DNA of 39,428 nucleotides. Source: a virus (Duplodnaviria; Caudoviricetes). Of this stretch, positions 1,583 through 30,999 are shown piece after piece. Both the position numbers and the translations under genes were made by a program. The notes beneath the pieces are model-generated. The model saw nothing but the letters and a program-made list of their open reading frames with translations. It did not search any database and was not told the DNA's origin. The DNA lies in IMG/VR virus record IMGVR_UViG_3300037047_000288, positions 1 to 39,428 of that record; one strand, 5' to 3'. Each line of letters opens with the position of its first letter. The first letter of the stretch is position 1.

Positions 1583-4456
1583 TTATGTACCCTGAGGCCT
1601 GACGACAAAATTCAACCCCTGGCGCTTGCCTTCTTTAATAATGGCGGGCAATTGCAGTCGCGCTAAAACCGTGCTGTCAATTTTTAGTACTAAATCCCTG
1701 TCATCTGCCTGCTGAGAAGCTTGAGATATTCTTATGGCGTCCATGACGGCGCGGTAAACCGCCTGCGCGACAGTGTCGGCAATACTAGCGCTATCAACGA
1801 TCGACGTCGTGGCTGCACTGTGTGTCAATGTAACAGGCTGCTGAACCATCGGTTGTACAAAGCTTGTGAGTTGCTTAGTTATGTCACTAACGGCACTGCG
1901 GATTTCCGGCACACCGCCCGATATCCCTTCCGCGAACATTTTTATCAGGTTCGGCGCCCACTTGTCAGCATAGCGGCCGGGACCCTTTTCTGTGGGAGAA
2001 GAAAAACCAAGAAAACCTTTCACGATGTCCACACCTTCGGAAACCGCTGATTTCAGACTGGAAAACTTTGACTTGATACCGTCGATTATGTTTTGAATCA
2101 GGTTCTTACCCCAAGACATAGCCTCTTTGACGATGCCCAATACAGTCTCTTTAGCCGCCTCCCAGGGTTCTACAATCCTGTTATAAAGCATGTCTTTCAT
2201 ATCTGTGAATTTCTTCAATATCGCATTCCAGACTGCGCCGATGGTAGTCTTAATTTTGTTGCTGATAGTCTCTACGGCTTTTCTGGCTGCCTCAACGGGA
2301 TCTTCGACAGCGCGGCCAATTGATTTCCAGATGCTTGCCGCTTTAAGCAGCCCGTCCCATACTGCCTTCAGGAAAGGAGCTAAAAAGTTCCAAACAACCA
2401 GGGCAGCTTTTTTTATGCCTTCCCAGAGAGTTGAAAAGAAAGGATCCAATACAGACCAAATTGCTGTCGCAGCGGTTACAATAGTGTTCCAAACAGCGGT
2501 GAAGAAAGCTGCCAACCCGTTCCAGATAGCCATAGTAACAGTTTTAATGCCTTCCCAGAGTAAAGAGAAAAACGGCCCTAATACAGACCATATCGTCTTC
2601 GCAATCTCAACGATGCTGAACCAGATAAAAGCCAGAGAAAAGACTATGAGTTTCCATATTGTTTCCGCTACAGACTTTATGCCATCCCAAAGGGTTGAAA
2701 AAAATGGACCAAGGACACCCCATATTGTCGTTGCAGTGGTTACGATGCTTTGCCAAAGCGGGGAAAGGATGCCGGCTATCGGCTCCCAGATCGGTCTTGT
2801 AAGGCTAACAAACCCTTCCCAAATATTTTTTAATGTTCCAGTAATCCAGTTCCAAGCTGTAACGGCACTGTTTTTTATCCCGTCCCACAGCCAGCCGAAA
2901 AATCCTTTTACCCGCTCGCCGAATGAAGGTAGCTCTGTTTCAAAGCCTGCCAGCATCTCTGCCATGTCAGGGATTTCCGGCAGAGTAAAGTCGTCCAGGG
3001 TCGGCGTATCTAAAGACATATCTTCTTGCAACTGGTGGACTTCGTCGAAGGACTGGATGTTGTCCCTGGCAGCTTTACCGGCTTTCTTTAACGCGTCAGC
3101 CTGGTCTTTCGCTGCGTCCGCTGCACCTTCTGTACTGGTGAATACTGCATCCATTTGTTTTGCTATGTCGGCTACAGCTACTGGTTTTTCAAGGGTTTTG
3201 GTATAGCGGTTCCACAGAGCTATACCGCCGCCAACTATTGCTGTTAGGGCTAATACCACCCAGCCAAGTCCGGGTATGGCTGCTAAGACAGAATATATCG
3301 CAACCTTTAACTTAGCCAATACGCCTGTCATAGCAATACCTTGCATGGCCGCTAATGCCATTTGTACCTGATATATACCCACAACCTTGCTAAGAAAAGC
3401 AAAAATATCCCCAATCGCAACTAATTCTCCTTTAAGGGACAGCGTGATAAGTCGTAACATTTCTGTCATTATGGCAGCTGTTTTTAATGAAATGCTGTAA
3501 GTAATTAACATCGCTACAACAGTTTTAATCCATGACCAGTTTTGTGCCATAGCCGCTGTAAACCTCGTAACCCATGTTAATACTGTCTTTACGGTATTAG
3601 CTACAGCTTTACCCCACGATTGCAGAGTAACCTTGTTTACTTCCGCCCAGCTAATAGCTTTTTTAAGTGAATTCGTGATACCGTCCACAATGACACTCAA
3701 TGCAGGCAAGGCCAGCGGCTTCGCGATAGCGTTCTTGAGCGTGTCCCAGTAGCGCGGCAGAGAACTGATCTGCTTCCCGACCACGCCCATAGAAGCCTCG
3801 TAAGTGCCCGCGATCTTCTCACCTTCGGCTAGGATATAATTCAGCATGGCCTGTTTCTTCTCGGCTTCGGTTAGCTGCTTTGTCGTCTTGCCAACCGTTT
3901 TGGCATAATCTTTATAAATTTCGTTCATGTTGCGGGTCATCCCGAAAGCAGAGAGCAGCTCCGGCCGCTGCTTCGCAATAGCTTCCGTCATCTGCTCGGC
4001 AGCCTGGGAGGAGTTGTAGCCGGCGATAACCGCAGCGTCCTGGGCTACCCGGGCCAGCCTGGCCGCATCCGCAGTATCGAGCTGCGCTTGCATAAAACGG
4101 GTTAATATTTGCGTAGCTTCCTGCTCGGCAATACCGAGTTCCATGACGGATTTTCTCTGCTCACGTAGCGCAGTTATAGCGTAGCCGGAGGACTTGGCCA
4201 CAGATTGCATGGCGATGTCCAGAACTTCCGTCCGGGCAGCAGTGTTGACAAAATCAGTGATAGCGCCGCCCAGGGAGCGGAAACCTTGGAGCAGGCCGAT
4301 GCCCAGGGCGAATGAGAAAGCCCCTTTGAAGATGCTACCCAGGGTCATAGCTTTCTTCTGGGTTACACCTTCCATCCGGCCCAGGTCTTTTTCGTATTGT
4401 TTGCTGTCCAGTGCCATGCGGACAAAAAGTTCGCCAGCTAACACTTTATTCACCAC
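1583..4456 (-). CDS. Tail tape measure protein
   Basis: 957 aa, Ala/Ile/Trp-rich and helical, with Trp/Phe repeats about every 11 residues; follows the tail assembly chaperones. Confidence 0.92.
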   Translation of the reverse strand: MVNKVLAGELFVRMALDSKQYEKDLGRMEGVTQKKAMTLGSIFKGAFSFALGIGLLQGFRSLGGAITDFVNTAARTEVLDIAMQSVAKSSGYAITALREQRKSVMELGIAEQEATQILTRFMQAQLDTADAARLARVAQDAAVIAGYNSSQAAEQMTEAIAKQRPELLSAFGMTRNMNEIYKDYAKTVGKTTKQLTEAEKKQAMLNYILAEGEKIAGTYEASMGVVGKQISSLPRYWDTLKNAIAKPLALPALSVIVDGITNSLKKAISWAEVNKVTLQSWGKAVANTVKTVLTWVTRFTAAMAQNWSWIKTVVAMLITYSISLKTAAIMTEMLRLITLSLKGELVAIGDIFAFLSKVVGIYQVQMALAAMQGIAMTGVLAKLKVAIYSVLAAIPGLGWVVLALTAIVGGGIALWNRYTKTLEKPVAVADIAKQMDAVFTSTEGAADAAKDQADALKKAGKAARDNIQSFDEVHQLQEDMSLDTPTLDDFTLPEIPDMAEMLAGFETELPSFGERVKGFFGWLWDGIKNSAVTAWNWITGTLKNIWEGFVSLTRPIWEPIAGILSPLWQSIVTTATTIWGVLGPFFSTLWDGIKSVAETIWKLIVFSLAFIWFSIVEIAKTIWSVLGPFFSLLWEGIKTVTMAIWNGLAAFFTAVWNTIVTAATAIWSVLDPFFSTLWEGIKKAALVVWNFLAPFLKAVWDGLLKAASIWKSIGRAVEDPVEAARKAVETISNKIKTTIGAVWNAILKKFTDMKDMLYNRIVEPWEAAKETVLGIVKEAMSWGKNLIQNIIDGIKSKFSSLKSAVSEGVDIVKGFLGFSSPTEKGPGRYADKWAPNLIKMFAEGISGGVPEIRSAVSDITKQLTSFVQPMVQQPVTLTHSAATTSIVDSASIADTVAQAVYRAVMDAIRISQASQQADDRDLVLKIDSTVLARLQLPAIIKEGKRQGLNFVVRPQGT

Positions 4457-18008: not shown

Positions 18009-18404
18009 TTAAAATAACATTGATTCTATTTCATCTTTCACAATAGCTACGCATTTATCTGGATCAAACAATATTACTTCATCCTTTAGTCTGACAACAC
18101 GCCAACCGTATTTCCAAAGCAACTCATCACGTTTTTTATCCCGACATTTTTGAATTGTAGTATTATGGTTTTTACCATCACACTCAACAACTATTTTAGC
18201 TTTTGGGAATGCAAAATCAACTGCTATAGTTTTGCCCTTTAATCTGAATTTGTATTGAGGAAACGGCACAAGACCACATAGGATAAAAGCAGCGTAGAGT
18301 TTTTTTTCGGCCGGTGTTCTTGGTCCATCATTATTTAAGAGGTTTTCCGACAACGATCCAATTTCATTATACGTGGTATCGGTAATTTTTGTCAAGTATT
18401 TCAC
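18009..18404 (-). CDS. DUF559/Vsr-like PD-(D/E)XK endonuclease
   Basis: TPAEKKL, VDFAF, VVECDG..H and RDELL...GWRVVR motifs; AT-rich. Confidence 0.85.
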   Translation of the reverse strand: MKYLTKITDTTYNEIGSLSENLLNNDGPRTPAEKKLYAAFILCGLVPFPQYKFRLKGKTIAVDFAFPKAKIVVECDGKNHNTTIQKCRDKKRDELLWKYGWRVVRLKDEVILFDPDKCVAIVKDEIESMLF

Positions 18405-25734: not shown

Positions 25735-26781
25735 CTAAGTTGGTCCACCGTTAGGCCCACCATAAGCGCCGTTCGGTAGTATCCAGTTTGTAGTAAAAAC
25801 GTCTTCTGGTTTGAAATCACACCGTAGTGCTTTTGCCACCCATTCTGATGCATCGGGATACCTATCCAGAAAACTTCTACCCTTTGCAGCCATCTGTTCC
25901 AGAGTTAGTTTAACGTCTACAGTGTGGTTCAGTTCCTTCTCCATTTCCACCAGCTCCAGGAAACGGATCGAATCTATATCGCGAATTGTCGCCCAGTGGT
26001 CAGGTCCGCTGAAAATACAAGTCATACAGGAAACGCGACTAAACCCAAGGTAATAAGCGGGGTGAGGCTGCACCCTAAACTCGTCAAAAGTTTCCCACAC
26101 CAGTTCCTCTGGCCAGTCTATTACAGGCCGCCATCGGTGAACCAAGCGGTTCTTTGTATTGCCATGGTCAAGCTCTGTTTCTAAATATCGGGAACGGGCT
26201 GGTGATTCCTCACGGCGTTCCCCTGACAATACCAGGTACTTGCCCTGCTTAAACTCCGGCTCATTACACAGTACCCTACGGAAAACATCAATTTTAACTA
26301 CACCTGAACACCATCGTGTCAACAGACTTACAGATTTTGCTGGCCATTTTCTACGTGTGGACAGGCTACCAGCTACTGTTGGTAGGTATTCATGGGAACC
26401 GGCTCTGACGTATTCAACACCCTTTGATTTATCGTTCTCCCTTAAGAGTTCCCCGCGTATCCCGCCCCGGCGCCACATAAACTCTACTCGTATTCCAAGA
26501 GCCTGGGCAAAAGCTTTAACGTAAGCTTCTGTAACCGGCCAATCCATAAAAGGTCTTGCACCAGGTCCACCGTCAACTGACTGATGCCAAAGTTCAATGC
26601 GTTTCTTCGGGATGCCCATTTTAAGGAGAAATAGCACCATTGCACCAGAATCCTTACCACCAGAGCTTTGTACTAGGATTTTGTCGTATCTGTCTAAATC
26701 GAATAGCGCTATTGGTTGTCTATTTGGTGGCTGATCAAGCTCCTCAAAAAATACCGACTGTTTCATTTCACCGGTACCCAC
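25735..26781 (-). CDS. PAPS reductase / PP-loop family protein
   Basis: SGGKDS PP-loop, WCS..K, GERREES..R and RVSC..C motifs; start may be MKQSV at 26766. Confidence 0.85.
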   Translation of the reverse strand: MGTGEMKQSVFFEELDQPPNRQPIALFDLDRYDKILVQSSGGKDSGAMVLFLLKMGIPKKRIELWHQSVDGGPGARPFMDWPVTEAYVKAFAQALGIRVEFMWRRGGIRGELLRENDKSKGVEYVRAGSHEYLPTVAGSLSTRRKWPAKSVSLLTRWCSGVVKIDVFRRVLCNEPEFKQGKYLVLSGERREESPARSRYLETELDHGNTKNRLVHRWRPVIDWPEELVWETFDEFRVQPHPAYYLGFSRVSCMTCIFSGPDHWATIRDIDSIRFLELVEMEKELNHTVDVKLTLEQMAAKGRSFLDRYPDASEWVAKALRCDFKPEDVFTTNWILPNGAYGGPNGGPT

Positions 26782-27071
26782 AGCACCTGGCCCGGGTGAA
26801 TCATCGGGGTGATCCCGTTAACCTCTCGGAGTTCCCACACCACATCCCGTATATCTCGTCGGCCACGGTACTCCCGGGCGATGCTCCAAAGCGTGTCCCC
26901 GGGCTGAACCACGTACTCTGTGTATTCGTCTGCAAAGATAGTAACTTGTCCTGCAGAAGGATGTTGCATTAGTACATAGAAAATGGATATAATACAGAGT
27001 AGGATAATTGTGGCCACCAGCTGGTGGTTATTTTTTTTATACGTGTAGGGTTGGGTTTCCCAGCGTAACAT
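26763..27071 (-). CDS. Membrane-anchored LysM protein (YneA-like)
   Basis: N-terminal TM followed by YVVQPGDTLWSIA...NGI..IHPGQVLWVP. Confidence 0.82.
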   Translation of the reverse strand: MLRWETQPYTYKKNNHQLVATIILLCIISIFYVLMQHPSAGQVTIFADEYTEYVVQPGDTLWSIAREYRGRRDIRDVVWELREVNGITPMIHPGQVLWVPVK

Positions 27072-27169
27072 CCGGAATCACCTTCCTCTATCTCCAAAAT
27101 TTTCACGGCTTCGCGTAGAAAAAAGACAGTCCATTAAGCTAACAATAGTTACTTTGAGGCTACTCCCAG

Positions 27170-30049
27170 TTAATCTTTTTTATAAAACTTTGTAGTAAAA
27201 CCGTCTGCTTTTAGTAAAAGACCAGGCGCCCAATGAATTGGCCGGCTCATGATTTCGCACACCTGGTTGAGATCCGCCAGGCTCTCTGACACGTCCAGTA
27301 CAATCTCATCATGGACGTGCATCACAATTAGGTATCCGGCAGTGGCCACCCGGGAAAGACTTTCGGCCAAACAGTCCCGGGCGATGGCCTGTACACAGTT
27401 ATGGACGATAAACGGGCCATCGTCGCCCATTACTGTGAAACGGTTTCTTGGGCCCGTGTTTAAGATGTCATAAATCGATTCGTAACGTCCGGAGGAGAGA
27501 ATAAAAGGTTTTCTGGGCAGTTGTTTTGTACGCGATAGGATAGAGTTGTAACCCCTATTCCGGACTTCTCTGCTGCTTCCGCCAAAGTCACTCTCCCCCA
27601 AGGAGTATTGATTAGTAAGTTGTTGCGTTTGTTTCTTCCTTGGGTTTTGTCTGATACCCAACGGCAGTTTTCCGGGCAGTAATTGCCATCTACATCTTTT
27701 CGATCGATTGACAGTCCCTGTTTGTAAGTGGGGTTCATATCCTCCCAAAACGCTTCGAAACTGTTTAGCCACCGATCGCACACTTTGATACCGCGTCCGC
27801 CGTAATTCTCCCATGCCTGGTGTGTCAGAAGAGTACAGCGGTCTTTCATGGACCGCCAAACTGCATAAGCAGGATGTTTTGACATTCCATGGGTAGTTCG
27901 TGCTTTTGAGATAGCCGCAGATCTTTGGCAACCACAAGATCTTTGTTTTCCCTTTAGAAATTCGGCGGCAGGCATGACGAATTCTTTTCCACAGTCGCAA
28001 CGGAAGGTCCAAAAAGACTTTTTCCCGTCTGATCCCGCGTAAGCTACTGCCGTTAGGCAGTGTAACTTCATGCCGGTAATATCCCTCGCACGATGATGCA
28101 TCACGCCACCCCTTTTCGGTTAAAATCAAATGTTCTGGTGTTAGCCGCACACCATTAACGCTAATCGTATTTTGCTGACCTTTACAAACAAGCCCTTCAT
28201 GTGTAACCCATTCGTTTCCATCCCAAAGTAAATCATCAGATTGGATTTTGTGCATTTGTACCCAGCCTCGGTGAGTGAGCACTTCCGTGTCCTCGGCGAG
28301 GCAGTTTTCAACGAGCTTCCCACCATACGTAGGGATGATCTCCCATTTCCGGGTCTGCTGGTTCACACCGCGGTAGTATAACGCTTCCCTGTTTCGTTCG
28401 TTTATTTCCAGAAAGGGTTTCGCGTAAAAAAGTTTTCGACCACTGGGCAGCGTTATGGTCAAGAAATCCTGATCCGTTGCGTAGTCACCTTCACGGGCTA
28501 TCAGCAATCCTTTAATACCTGTGGGTAGGCCCGTGCGCATAACATTTAATACGGCGTTCTCCAGGCTGTACCAGAGGTCTACAATCCTCTTGTTTGCGCT
28601 GCGCCACCGCTGTACAATCTCGGGTAATTCTTCTTCGGTGAGGCCCATATTCAACGCGCCCATGGAAATCAGCGCTCCCGCTGCCCCTTGGTAGCCAAGG
28701 GCTAATTCCGCCACTTTTCCTTTTTGCCGCAGTTCATATTCTGGATTCCCTTTTACGATTTTTTCTAACGGCACTCCGAACATCTGACTGGCAGAGGCCT
28801 CGTAGATCTTACCGTGAGTGGCGAAAACATCAAGCCGCCACTGCTCCCCGGCTAACCAGGCGATAATCCTTGCCTCAATGGCTGAAAAGTCCGCCACAAG
28901 CAGTGTGTTCCCAGGGGACGGTACAAACGCTGTCCTGGTGAGCTGAGAGAGCGTGTCCGGGACGTTTCCGTAGATGAGCTTAAGCGCGTCAATCTTTTTT
29001 AACCTGGTACACTCACGGGCATGGCCAAGGGTCTCAAGATAATTGCGGGGTAGGTTCTGCACCTGGACCAGTCTGCCTGCCCAGCGGCCTGTCCTGTTGG
29101 CACCGTAGAACTGAAGTAAGCCTCTAATTCTGCCGTCCGCACAGACCGCGGCATCCATGGCCGTATATTTTTTAACACTGGTTTTGGACAACTCCTGCCG
29201 GATCTCAAGCATCCGTTTTGCAGTCCCATCATTAGTAGCCTTGATGAGTTCTTTCACAGTATCCTTACGTAAATTTGTGATCTCTTCGCCCATTTCCTCA
29301 GTTAGCCACTTGGACAGTTGCTGAACGCTTTTAGGATTATCCAATCCGGACAGATGCACGGCCTCAGTCATAAGCTCGTTCGTGATGACCTCGTCACAGT
29401 AGAGGGCACCCGCAATTAATTCCTGATTCACGGCAACACCGTAAGCATTGATGCGCTGATCCAGTTCCCATAGTGTCTGCTCAGCAGCCGGCACCGGAAA
29501 CGCCGATAGCCTACGCTCGATTTCCATTTCCGTCACAACGTCCTGCCGGCAGTACTCTTTAAACAGCTGCCATTTATCCGGTTCGTGATGCGGAAGCGTC
29601 CTTGTACGGTGGCCGTTACTCTTTGTCGGTTTGCACGGCAGACAGAACGTACGAATGAGCGCTGATCCGGTACTTATTTTTCGTTTATTTTCCGGTAAGC
29701 CTAGCGCTACGGCTGTGGCTGCCAGGCCGGCTGTATAACCGCAATAGAGCCCGTGTAACATTGTACAGTGCCATTGCTCCAGCGGAGAAAGATAGAACTC
29801 ATTAAGGCAATACCACTCAAAAGGGGCATTGTAGGCGTGTTTAACTACGTCGGAATTATGCAGGGCTGATATAACCTCGTCCGGTAGGCATTCGCCCTGA
29901 GCTAGGTCTATAACCCGTACAGGCTCACCATCAAAGCTGTAAGCGAATAAGAGGATTTGGAAGTCAGGGGCCTGTACGTACTTATACAGGCCCGCTTTCT
30001 TCAGATCAACACTTGAAAATGTTTCGATATCTATGGAGAGGTGTGTCAT
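27170..30049 (-). CDS. polA: Phage family A DNA polymerase with intein
   Basis: ExoI DIETFS, motif A DFSAIEAR, motif B RQKGKVAELALGY and motif C HVHDE; interrupted at KLVEN|CVQAIARD. Confidence 0.95.
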   Translation of the reverse strand: MTHLSIDIETFSSVDLKKAGLYKYVQAPDFQILLFAYSFDGEPVRVIDLAQGECLPDEVISALHNSDVVKHAYNAPFEWYCLNEFYLSPLEQWHCTMLHGLYCGYTAGLAATAVALGLPENKRKISTGSALIRTFCLPCKPTKSNGHRTRTLPHHEPDKWQLFKEYCRQDVVTEMEIERRLSAFPVPAAEQTLWELDQRINAYGVAVNQELIAGALYCDEVITNELMTEAVHLSGLDNPKSVQQLSKWLTEEMGEEITNLRKDTVKELIKATNDGTAKRMLEIRQELSKTSVKKYTAMDAAVCADGRIRGLLQFYGANRTGRWAGRLVQVQNLPRNYLETLGHARECTRLKKIDALKLIYGNVPDTLSQLTRTAFVPSPGNTLLVADFSAIEARIIAWLAGEQWRLDVFATHGKIYEASASQMFGVPLEKIVKGNPEYELRQKGKVAELALGYQGAAGALISMGALNMGLTEEELPEIVQRWRSANKRIVDLWYSLENAVLNVMRTGLPTGIKGLLIAREGDYATDQDFLTITLPSGRKLFYAKPFLEINERNREALYYRGVNQQTRKWEIIPTYGGKLVENCLAEDTEVLTHRGWVQMHKIQSDDLLWDGNEWVTHEGLVCKGQQNTISVNGVRLTPEHLILTEKGWRDASSCEGYYRHEVTLPNGSSLRGIRREKVFLDLPLRLWKRIRHACRRISKGKTKILWLPKICGYLKSTNYPWNVKTSCLCSLAVHERPLYSSDTPGMGELRRTRYQSVRSVAKQFRSVLGGYEPHLQTGTVNRSKRCRWQLLPGKLPLGIRQNPRKKQTQQLTNQYSLGESDFGGSSREVRNRGYNSILSRTKQLPRKPFILSSGRYESIYDILNTGPRNRFTVMGDDGPFIVHNCVQAIARDCLAESLSRVATAGYLIVMHVHDEIVLDVSESLADLNQVCEIMSRPIHWAPGLLLKADGFTTKFYKKD
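27398..28303 (-). mobile_element. Intein (302 aa) in DNA polymerase
   Basis: Block A CLAEDTEVLT (Cys583), block B LTPEH, block F YDIL..., block G IVHN followed by extein Cys. Removal restores KLVENCVQAIARD. Confidence 0.92.
27460..28104 (-). CDS. HNH-type homing endonuclease overprinted in the +1 frame of the intein
   Basis: CDCG..SCGC, HGMS, W..M..RC, YGGRGIKVCDRW and SIDRKDVDGNYCPENCRW..QGRNKR motifs; own RBS AAAAGGGGTGG before GTG-ATG. Confidence 0.88.
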   Translation of the reverse strand: MMHHRARDITGMKLHCLTAVAYAGSDGKKSFWTFRCDCGKEFVMPAAEFLKGKQRSCGCQRSAAISKARTTHGMSKHPAYAVWRSMKDRCTLLTHQAWENYGGRGIKVCDRWLNSFEAFWEDMNPTYKQGLSIDRKDVDGNYCPENCRWVSDKTQGRNKRNNLLINTPWGRVTLAEAAEKSGIGVTTLSYRVQNNCPENLLFSPPDVTNRFMTS

Positions 30050-30063
30050 AACTGCATCCTCCG

Positions 30064-30999
30064 TTACTCCGATCTATCGATCCAGCTAAAATTGTTTGCG
30101 TCTAAATATGCTTCCAGTGCTAATAACTGCTCTTCCGTACCTGTAATTTCATATAGGCTGGTTATTTGTTTAGCCACCATTACGGGTGTGGAGATTCGAG
30201 TCAGAATCTGTTTTGGAGTTTCTGTAGACTCCGGATGCATAACTTCAATCTTGGGGGCTTCAGTTGCTTTAGCGACAAGAGCTTCTGCCGCTTTCTTTTC
30301 CCGCTCTTCTATTTGTTGTGCGTCAGAGATTATTAGCAGTTCGATTTCAGCAACTGACTGGTAGCTTAAAAGTCTTACGTATTGGTCAGGCATTAATACG
30401 TTTGATAATTGATATTGTGCATTGGCCAATTCTACTTTTGTTTTAATCAGATCAATATCCTGTGCCTCTTTTTCCTGCTGAGTTTTTAAAGTGTTTGCGA
30501 GGGCAGTTAGCTCGGTTTTGATAGTTTTGATGGGCTTCCCCTTGTTCAAATAGTCTTCTAAGATAATAAGCTGAACAGCATATTTTTCAGTTAGGTTATG
30601 GTCCAAAATCAGGGTGTTAATGATGCTTTTGACCTCTGCACGCTTTTTCTCTCTACGGTCGAGCTCAAACTGATCATGCTGTTTCGTTAGGGGCTGAATA
30701 ACGTCTTCAAATTTTCCGTAGAGTGATTTACATTGATTTTCAAAAAACGTCACGGATTCTGTGAGTTGCTTTTTCGTGGTTTTCCGAAATTCGTCAAGGG
30801 ACTTCTGCCCTTTTCGGAGTTCTGCAATAGTCTTTTTACAGTCTGCGACTGTGCTTTCAGTAAAGACTAAGCCTCTGTATTTGGTTAAAACTGAATCAAG
30901 ATGATCAGATATCTCTTGATAGTTGAAGTTGACGACAGCGGGCTTTATTTCAAGTATTCTTACGACTATTTCAGTAGATACCGTCTCTATTTTGCTCAT
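30064..30999 (-). CDS. DUF1351-like coiled-coil protein
   Basis: FNYQEI..KYRGLVFT..KKTIAELRK pattern; AT-richer. Confidence 0.7.
   Translation of the reverse strand: MSKIETVSTEIVVRILEIKPAVVNFNYQEISDHLDSVLTKYRGLVFTESTVADCKKTIAELRKGQKSLDEFRKTTKKQLTESVTFFENQCKSLYGKFEDVIQPLTKQHDQFELDRREKKRAEVKSIINTLILDHNLTEKYAVQLIILEDYLNKGKPIKTIKTELTALANTLKTQQEKEAQDIDLIKTKVELANAQYQLSNVLMPDQYVRLLSYQSVAEIELLIISDAQQIEEREKKAAEALVAKATEAPKIEVMHPESTETPKQILTRISTPVMVAKQITSLYEITGTEEQLLALEAYLDANNFSWIDRSE

Follow-up and report, generated by a model that had tools for sequence, protein, structure and literature searches.

A predicted His-less nuclease encoded out of frame within a probable intein of a phage family-A DNA polymerase

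We analyzed a 39,428-nucleotide sequence from a tailed virus (Duplodnaviria; Caudoviricetes; IMG/VR record IMGVR_UViG_3300037047_000288, positions 1 to 39,428), referred to here at its full length as the window, and found that its gene for a family-A DNA polymerase (polA) contains an intein-like insert whose +1 frame, on the same strand, encodes a second, nuclease-related protein. This overlapping-frame layout is real and is under selection. The insert is likely a class-1-type intein, and we consider it probable that it acts as a contiguous PolA intein with a separately made, PacI-like His-Me nuclease that drives homing, splicing removing the in-frame peptide. A preliminary description of the window, made from its sequence alone, had proposed an intein in polA with an out-of-frame nuclease; the layout was confirmed, but the strand had been left unstated, and the element lies on the minus strand.

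The window is a single-contig assembly in which phage replication, packaging, head and tail genes are present. The extein nearest to that of the window among those bearing an intein belongs to an Alicyclobacillus metagenome-assembled genome, and the host is therefore probably a member of Bacillota. The polA gene encodes a precursor that matched Pfam DNA_pol_A (E = 9e-19) and PHROG 17 (E = 3e-129). Translation of the insert from 28303 to 27398 yielded C1, TPEH, YDILNTG and HN in that order, followed by Cys, and the hallmarks of a class 1 intein (Cys1, the TxxH of block B, the Asp of block F, the terminal His-Asn and the +1 Cys) were all present. The features of the polymerase gene are as follows.

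27170..30049, minus strand: precursor of the phage family-A DNA polymerase, 959 aa, reduced to 657 aa once the intein is removed
28304..30049, minus strand: N-extein, 582 aa, ending in YGGKLVEN
27398..28303, minus strand: probable intein, 302 aa, contiguous and stop-free
28094..28303, minus strand: N-terminal splicing region, with Cys1 at 28301-28303, block B T55-x-x-H58 at 28130-28141 and G65-W66 at 28106-28111
27398..27475, minus strand: C-terminal splicing region, with block F D279 and the terminal H301-N302
27395..27397, minus strand: +1 Cys codon of the C-extein, Ile or Val in most empty alleles
27170..27397, minus strand: C-extein, 75 aa

Relative to intein-free homologues the insertion is in frame and exact, and its removal leaves a polymerase of the median length of 79 such homologues (657 aa); the presence/absence difference in APSE, a phage of Hamiltonella, amounts to 918 nt. 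The intein frame of the window shows no stop codon of the kind that marks a split intein and is open throughout. It also differs from that of a canonical bifunctional intein, where the endonuclease domain sits between blocks B and F in the reading frame of the intein itself, in that the nuclease is in +1. Across 95 aligned inteins, residues C1, T55, H58, D279 and N302 are invariant and H301 is conserved in at least 90%. A profile of the intein family matched solved inteins (E = 1e-5) in its N-terminal part only, and the match of the intein frame to PHROG was likewise confined to the N-terminal 70 residues. The preliminary description had proposed searches of both frames with hidden Markov models (HMMs): the nested product was recognized as PHROG 374 'HNH endonuclease' (E = 1.6e-62), but Pfam and NCBIfam gave no significant intein or HNH match for either frame of the insert. 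The tentative assignment of a Hint fold to the insert reflects motifs and the sequence profile.

Given that an out-of-frame HNH insertion without splicing has been proposed for the methylase of the actinophage ShiLan (PMC11855218), the present insert might similarly remain in the polymerase as a tolerated loop. The invariance of the five residues in the 95 sequences, the purifying selection on the splicing ends described below, the match to solved inteins and the retention of both intein halves in split derivatives all argue against such a loop, and we regard it as very unlikely. For gp38/gp39 of Sodalis phage SO-1, a note in GenBank has the insert excised from the RNA as a group I intron, and introns of this type with HNH open reading frames (ORFs) are known from phage polymerase genes. 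Rfam gave no match at E <= 1 across 26500-30500, and an intron would need neither an open frame 0 nor the intein residues; the chance that the insert is an intron appears negligible.

The third frame of the insert contains many stops. The nested ORF takes up the middle 640 bases of the insert, and it and its associated sites are the following.

27460..28101, minus strand: nuclease ORF nested in the +1 frame, which gives 213 aa when read from ATG 28101, with GTG 28104 as an alternative start and a TAA stop at 27460
28106..28116, minus strand: putative Shine-Dalgarno (SD)-like site encoded by the K-G-W codons of the intein, assigned from sequence and duplex energy
27631..27705, minus strand: predicted active-site segment D133-R134...Y141...N145...N157, with Arg in the place of the HNH His and an invariant Tyr

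The ORF and frame of the 214-aa HNH-type endonuclease given in the preliminary description were correct, but the alignment of the family sets the start at ATG 28101 rather than at GTG 28104, which yields 213 aa, and Arg stands where HNH enzymes have their catalytic His. The stop TAA at 27460-27462 is built from intein codons L281-N282, and across the family the nuclease stop lies in or close to block F/G.

Both frames are open to a degree not expected by chance. The probability of an open intein frame, given the nuclease protein and the codon usage of this phage, was 1.1e-6, and that of an open +1 frame, given the intein peptide, was 2e-4, so that the earlier estimate of 1e-4 to 1e-5 was of the right order or conservative. 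An intein-frame stop in the +1 phase requires a nuclease codon that ends in T before AA, AG or GA. In the 106 nested clusters counted (the split form L148 being excluded), T was found at 0 of 3,582 such stop-creating third positions, compared with 3,478 of 12,617 safe sites (27.6%), whereas free-standing relatives had T at 1,813 of 4,932 of the same sites (36.8%) and at 4,283 of 10,848 safe sites (39.5%). All stops of the +1 phase can be removed silently (T to C), whereas the other same-strand phase contains stops that are unavoidable for this nuclease protein (probability 0 of an open intein frame); this difference may explain the preference for +1, although a more distant nuclease subfamily nonetheless uses +2.

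The ratio of nonsynonymous to synonymous substitution rates (dN/dS) was determined for 15 pairs with 72-98% identity, of which two are near duplicates. In the central region, the nuclease frame had a ratio of 0.17 and the intein frame one of 1.58; at the splicing ends, the ratio was 0.16 for the intein frame and 1.35 for the nuclease frame. The crossover anticipated in the preliminary description was thus observed, and because dN/dS swaps between the frames, the central in-frame peptide is a spacer whose constraint is chiefly the absence of stops. An assembly error, or compensating indels in an ordinary in-frame HNH intein, had been named at the outset as a danger, and depth over the window is indeed low (approximately 9x in the best run). 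The same phase in 107 clusters that include cultured phages leaves virtually no room for such an error. Contigs from all four groundwater runs showed no differing letters, indels or joints in the element; one of these runs may be the source of the window, the other three cover the element in pieces, and contigs drop rare variants.

To define the family, a protein search yielded 72 matches, mainly PolA with some SNF2-type helicases, whereas a search of viral loci with the single intein-frame peptide returned no locus, and a profile was needed. Most of the resulting viral, metagenome and phage loci were ranked by likeness to the intein-frame peptide of the window, with the best 80 of 375 viral and the best 80 of 412 metagenome matches retained, a procedure that favors same-phase forms; the set held 193 complete inteins, of which 154 (107 clusters at 95% identity) carry a full nuclease in +1, and the remainder comprised 17 mini-inteins, 4 partly deleted, 8 frame-broken and 10 with more distant nucleases. 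The 107 clusters share the phase with both frames open, as the preliminary description had wished to see in homologues. Among 176 inteins with a nuclease HMM match, 160 were intact in +1, 7 were intact in +2 and 9 were broken, and among 86 intein N-halves from prokaryote genomes, 43 were contiguous with +1, 5 were contiguous with +2 and 14 had no located C-end. In-frame HNH homologues, the refutation foreseen earlier, were found in neither collection (0/176; 0/86). Searches that started from the nuclease and were blind to frame gave the same picture: all 17 of the 17 complete inteins that they returned were stop-free and had the nuclease in +1.

In the nuclease tree, the 106 nested nucleases and that of split L148 form one clade with no free-standing members (support 0.97), and the nested/free-standing label changes 4 times, compared with 78 for shuffled labels (midpoint root). 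Because the nested nucleases form such a clade, the tree is consistent with a single event in which a mini-intein captured a free-standing nuclease gene. L148 (positions 3001-3963) is a split form at the same site, between EN and C: its N-half ends in TAG and the nuclease lies between the halves, with its TGA overlapping the ATG of the C-half. Its nesting inside the contiguous clade suggests that the change ran from contiguous to split. An alternative genetic code for this locus was rejected, the stops being TAG, TAA and TGA and the C-half having its own ATG. Mini-inteins and partly deleted inteins were also seen at the sites used by the window family (L119, L144, L281, L127 and L155); L119 and L144 retain the first codons of the nuclease and were therefore derived by deletion.

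A structure model of the nested protein (predicted local distance difference test score, 92.7) predicts a beta domain with pairs of Cys residues at the N terminus, a His-Me finger and a C-terminal helical domain. The best sequence match was I-HmuI (1u3e; E = 0.014), with D133-R134 aligned to the D-H of I-HmuI; Arg occupies the position of the I-HmuI catalytic His in all 221 relatives (109/109 nested and 112/112 free-standing), and R134, Y141, N145 and N157 are invariant in the same proteins. Residue 133 is Asp or Glu in the relatives, so that the Asp/Glu-Arg pair is itself invariant. The best structural match was PacI (3m7k; root mean square deviation of 2.6 over 75 residues, with 16% identity over the aligned core), with a Z of 6.3 against the tool's guide value of 8. 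The spacing of the corresponding PacI residues is equal to that of D133-R134...Y141. The nested protein is distinct from I-HmuI in having Arg for the catalytic His; PacI is a restriction enzyme. The nested protein is predicted to be a PacI-like His-Me nuclease that may use Tyr as its general base, as PacI itself uses Tyr in place of His in catalysis (PMC5714182, PMC3384342, PMC4081073).

The start codon of the nuclease and its SD-like site are formed from the T-x-x-G-W motif of the intein. The energy of anti-SD pairing upstream of the start was -10.6 kcal/mol in the window, with a family mean of -8.1 and a mean of -3.5 for control positions, and it was below that of synonymous recodings in 36 of 52 cases. 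Of the 106 clusters, 52 have a start codon 10 nt past the G of G-W, 40 have one at -5/-2 and only 3 have both, so that the two positions are mutually exclusive (Fisher p = 5e-12, with no correction for kinship); ATG, GTG and TTG interchange at the fixed position. These sequence patterns suggest that the nuclease is likely translated as a separate protein. If it arose instead by +1 ribosomal frameshifting, as a fusion to the polymerase frame, the start of the ORF directly after the last N-terminal splicing motif would be accounted for, as would the 17 of 106 relatives that have no start codon at either usual place. The interchange of start codons at a fixed position, its exclusivity with the upstream alternative and the +1-frame stop a few codons upstream of the start in the window all speak for independent initiation, and we regard frameshifting as unlikely. 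No sigma-70-like promoter or terminator was found within 27100-28700. Among public runs listed as containing the sequence there was none of RNA, a negative with no bearing on expression. No conserved hairpin covers the nuclease start (mean z of +0.36, with 0 of 43 below -2), and sequestration of the start in the manner of T4 is thus unsupported.

The distribution of the element fits homing. Its site is empty in all 79 scorable sequences of the 80 nearest polymerases, in which the next residue is Ile (47), Val (29) or Cys (3). The extein of the window nests among empty alleles (nearest, 82%), whereas the nucleases closest to its own (69% and 68%) reside in exteins that are only 42% and 52% alike. 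Inteins of the family are inserted at any of four neighboring positions in the GGKxxENxx motif (11, 28, 54 and 7 clusters, respectively); of 46 alleles filled at another of these positions, none has Cys at the residue that is +1 in the window. In APSE, the +1 codon is TGC in 6 filled alleles and ATT in 4 empty alleles; fixed differences between the two groups, this codon included, are clustered from -154 to +3; and diversity (pi) among filled alleles is 0.4% in the intein and 3.3% and 5.8% in distant flanks. The APSE pattern has been termed 'differential loss' in one account (PMC7313666). Recent gain with co-conversion appears to fit better, in that the empty alleles carry ATT rather than the Cys codon expected after clean loss, although the pattern might also stem from recombination with an unrelated empty allele. 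The +1 Cys was probably carried in with the element.

Taken together, these features suggest the following sequence of events. Some ribosomes would produce the 959-aa precursor, in which the Hint halves would fold around the spacer, and class 1 splicing by Cys1, the block B His, the terminal His-Asn and Cys+1 would release the 657-aa polymerase. Other ribosomes would initiate inside the polA message at the SD-like site of the T-x-x-G-W motif and produce the 213-aa nuclease, which in co-infections would cut or nick intein-free polA near the YGGKxxEN motif. Repair would then copy the element together with flanking bases and so convert the +1 Ile or Val codon to the Cys required for splicing. The element would have originated by capture of one free-standing nuclease gene by a mini-intein, and the +1 phase would persist through silent T-to-C avoidance of stops. 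We advance only tentatively, and at somewhat less than even chance, the more far-reaching proposal of a stable rather than transitional two-frame mobile element with a separately translated PacI-type Tyr homing enzyme, the homing of which imports the +1 Cys into Ile or Val alleles that were unfit for splicing beforehand, and which has slid among the four adjacent motif positions.

Several observations weigh against the overall mechanism. The canonical catalytic His of HNH enzymes is absent, the match to PacI is modest, and Foldseek against the Protein Data Bank returned nothing at E <= 0.001, with I-HmuI ranking first at E = 0.49. The SD signal is largely a by-product of the G-W motif (-7.1 kcal/mol for synonymous recodings versus -8.1 observed), and some relatives, as mentioned, lack a start codon at the usual places. 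No near-identical empty allele of the window was found in the contigs of the four groundwater runs or among the nearest polymerases, and the near-duplicate pairs and the ranking of loci described above belong on the same side. The nested protein might therefore be a DNA-binding protein or a decayed His-less finger rather than an active homing nuclease, with ordinary recombination spreading the element. The Arg in all 221 relatives, the moderate structural match and the existence of mini-inteins and partial deletions at the same site would all suit an inactive protein, whereas three other findings would not: the nuclease-frame dN/dS of 0.17; the invariance of Tyr141 and Asn157, in agreement with the replacement of His by Tyr in the chemistry of PacI (PMC5714182, PMC4081073); and, in APSE, the flanking tract and a diversity as low as after a sweep. 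We consider inactivity improbable, though it is the most serious of the alternatives, and retain the active homing nuclease as our reading.

The same arrangement is present in cultured phages: APSE-1 (P45 intein and P46), Shewanella phage SFCi1 and the Caulobacter RW-like phages (RW, RLK, KcrB and GB2A) share the +1 phase and the polymerase motif with the window, and are 31-34% identical to it across the full intein frame and 46-55% in the nuclease frame. The APSE intein is inserted three codons upstream of the window's site (before CEN). RefSeq annotates P46 as an HNH endonuclease within P45; the annotation begins at an internal Met and gives 140 aa, although 222 codons of the frame are free of stops, and at the APSE-1 locus (L315, positions 2703-3352; NC_000935) the open stretch includes a GTG where the family has its start and runs on from there. 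In the open-access literature we found no account of P46 as the out-of-frame homing enzyme of the intein or of this PolA family, although the nested nuclease of the APSE intein may be noted elsewhere. The Caulobacter and Shewanella phages make the element directly testable.

Out-of-frame intein nucleases are a known kind, first described in 2025-26. Actinophage inteins with an EndoVII-like enzyme in frame 3 (10.1101/2025.01.02.630785) resemble that of the window in being contiguous, in encoding the nuclease in another frame of the same strand and in the proposed invasion by a free-standing gene; they differ in the Endonuclease VII-like enzyme, the frame and the hosts, and the polymerases that bear them are of the Pol III alpha and Pol beta-like types. 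The same report deems such inteins extremely rare and possibly transitional, whereas in the window family the arrangement is common and in-frame forms were not encountered. A cyanobacterial dnaX intein with an out-of-frame LAGLIDADG homing endonuclease was examined with the same dN/dS test (10.64898/2026.09.14.751524) and, as described there, shares a putative SD, a disordered in-frame spacer and frame-dependent dN/dS; that intein belongs to a chromosomal gene, whereas the present His-Me finger is found in helicases and probable terminases as well as in phage PolA. In fractured genes (PMC2677866), a nuclease gene lies between the halves of a split intein, its stop overlapping the C-intein; L148 and the loci at a site within RWxGS, between G and S, are of this type, whereas the intein frame of the window is unbroken. 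The out-of-frame HNH of an actinophage methylase, mentioned in the preliminary description, is the non-intein ShiLan case, an HNH hidden in a stop-free insertion, with a Pacc40 variant that has been compared to PacI; as presented in that paper (PMC11855218), it differs in having no splicing domain, no SD and a non-essential methylase host. New here are the His-less nuclease, the PolA family, the intein-encoded start site and the probable import of Cys.

Whereas the published view holds out-of-frame intein nucleases to be rare and possibly short-lived, this one has been kept across more than 100 divergent polymerases in many host phyla, and its mini, partly deleted and split derivatives allow the steps of nuclease capture by inteins to be traced. 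Surveys based on proteins only would file such inteins as having a degenerate nuclease and overlook their mobility. If the import of Cys during homing is true, the rule that inteins land only before an existing Cys, Ser or Thr would be looser than assumed, and a His-less homing nuclease, if true, would be a new enzyme type.

Related layouts were seen elsewhere. In ten loci, related inteins carry a more distant nuclease in +2; most of these inteins sit at a second site in the polymerase, before CGY/CxLxLG, and in many Bacillota prophages this second site bears a 927-nt version with a +1 ORF. At a third polymerase site (RTGRW, or RWxG before S), nine loci are frame-broken and apparently contain split inteins with an intervening gene. 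Judged by their motifs, the intervening genes are presumably His-Me or GIY-YIG-like. Some polymerases bear two or three inteins. The +1-nuclease layout also occurs in SNF2-like helicases (L172, L173, L175 and L304) and in probable terminases (L011, L026 and L307); the last three group with free-standing nucleases outside the main clade, which suggests separate captures in the same phase. One free-standing relative with an open overlapping frame (L218) was rejected as an intein, the openness being a high-GC overlap that runs into the next gene.

Elsewhere in the window, a gene with a PAPS-reductase domain (25735-26781, minus strand; PHROG 424, Pfam PF01507) lies downstream of polA in the phage replication module, and a small DUF559 (Vsr-like) nuclease gene (18009-18404, minus strand) has the helicase module on one side and the terminase module on the other. 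At the contig end (37478-39428, plus strand), a DUF4352/TPR protein and a protein with a copper amine oxidase N-terminal domain are encoded beside HTH repressor-like genes and may represent a prophage edge or cargo.

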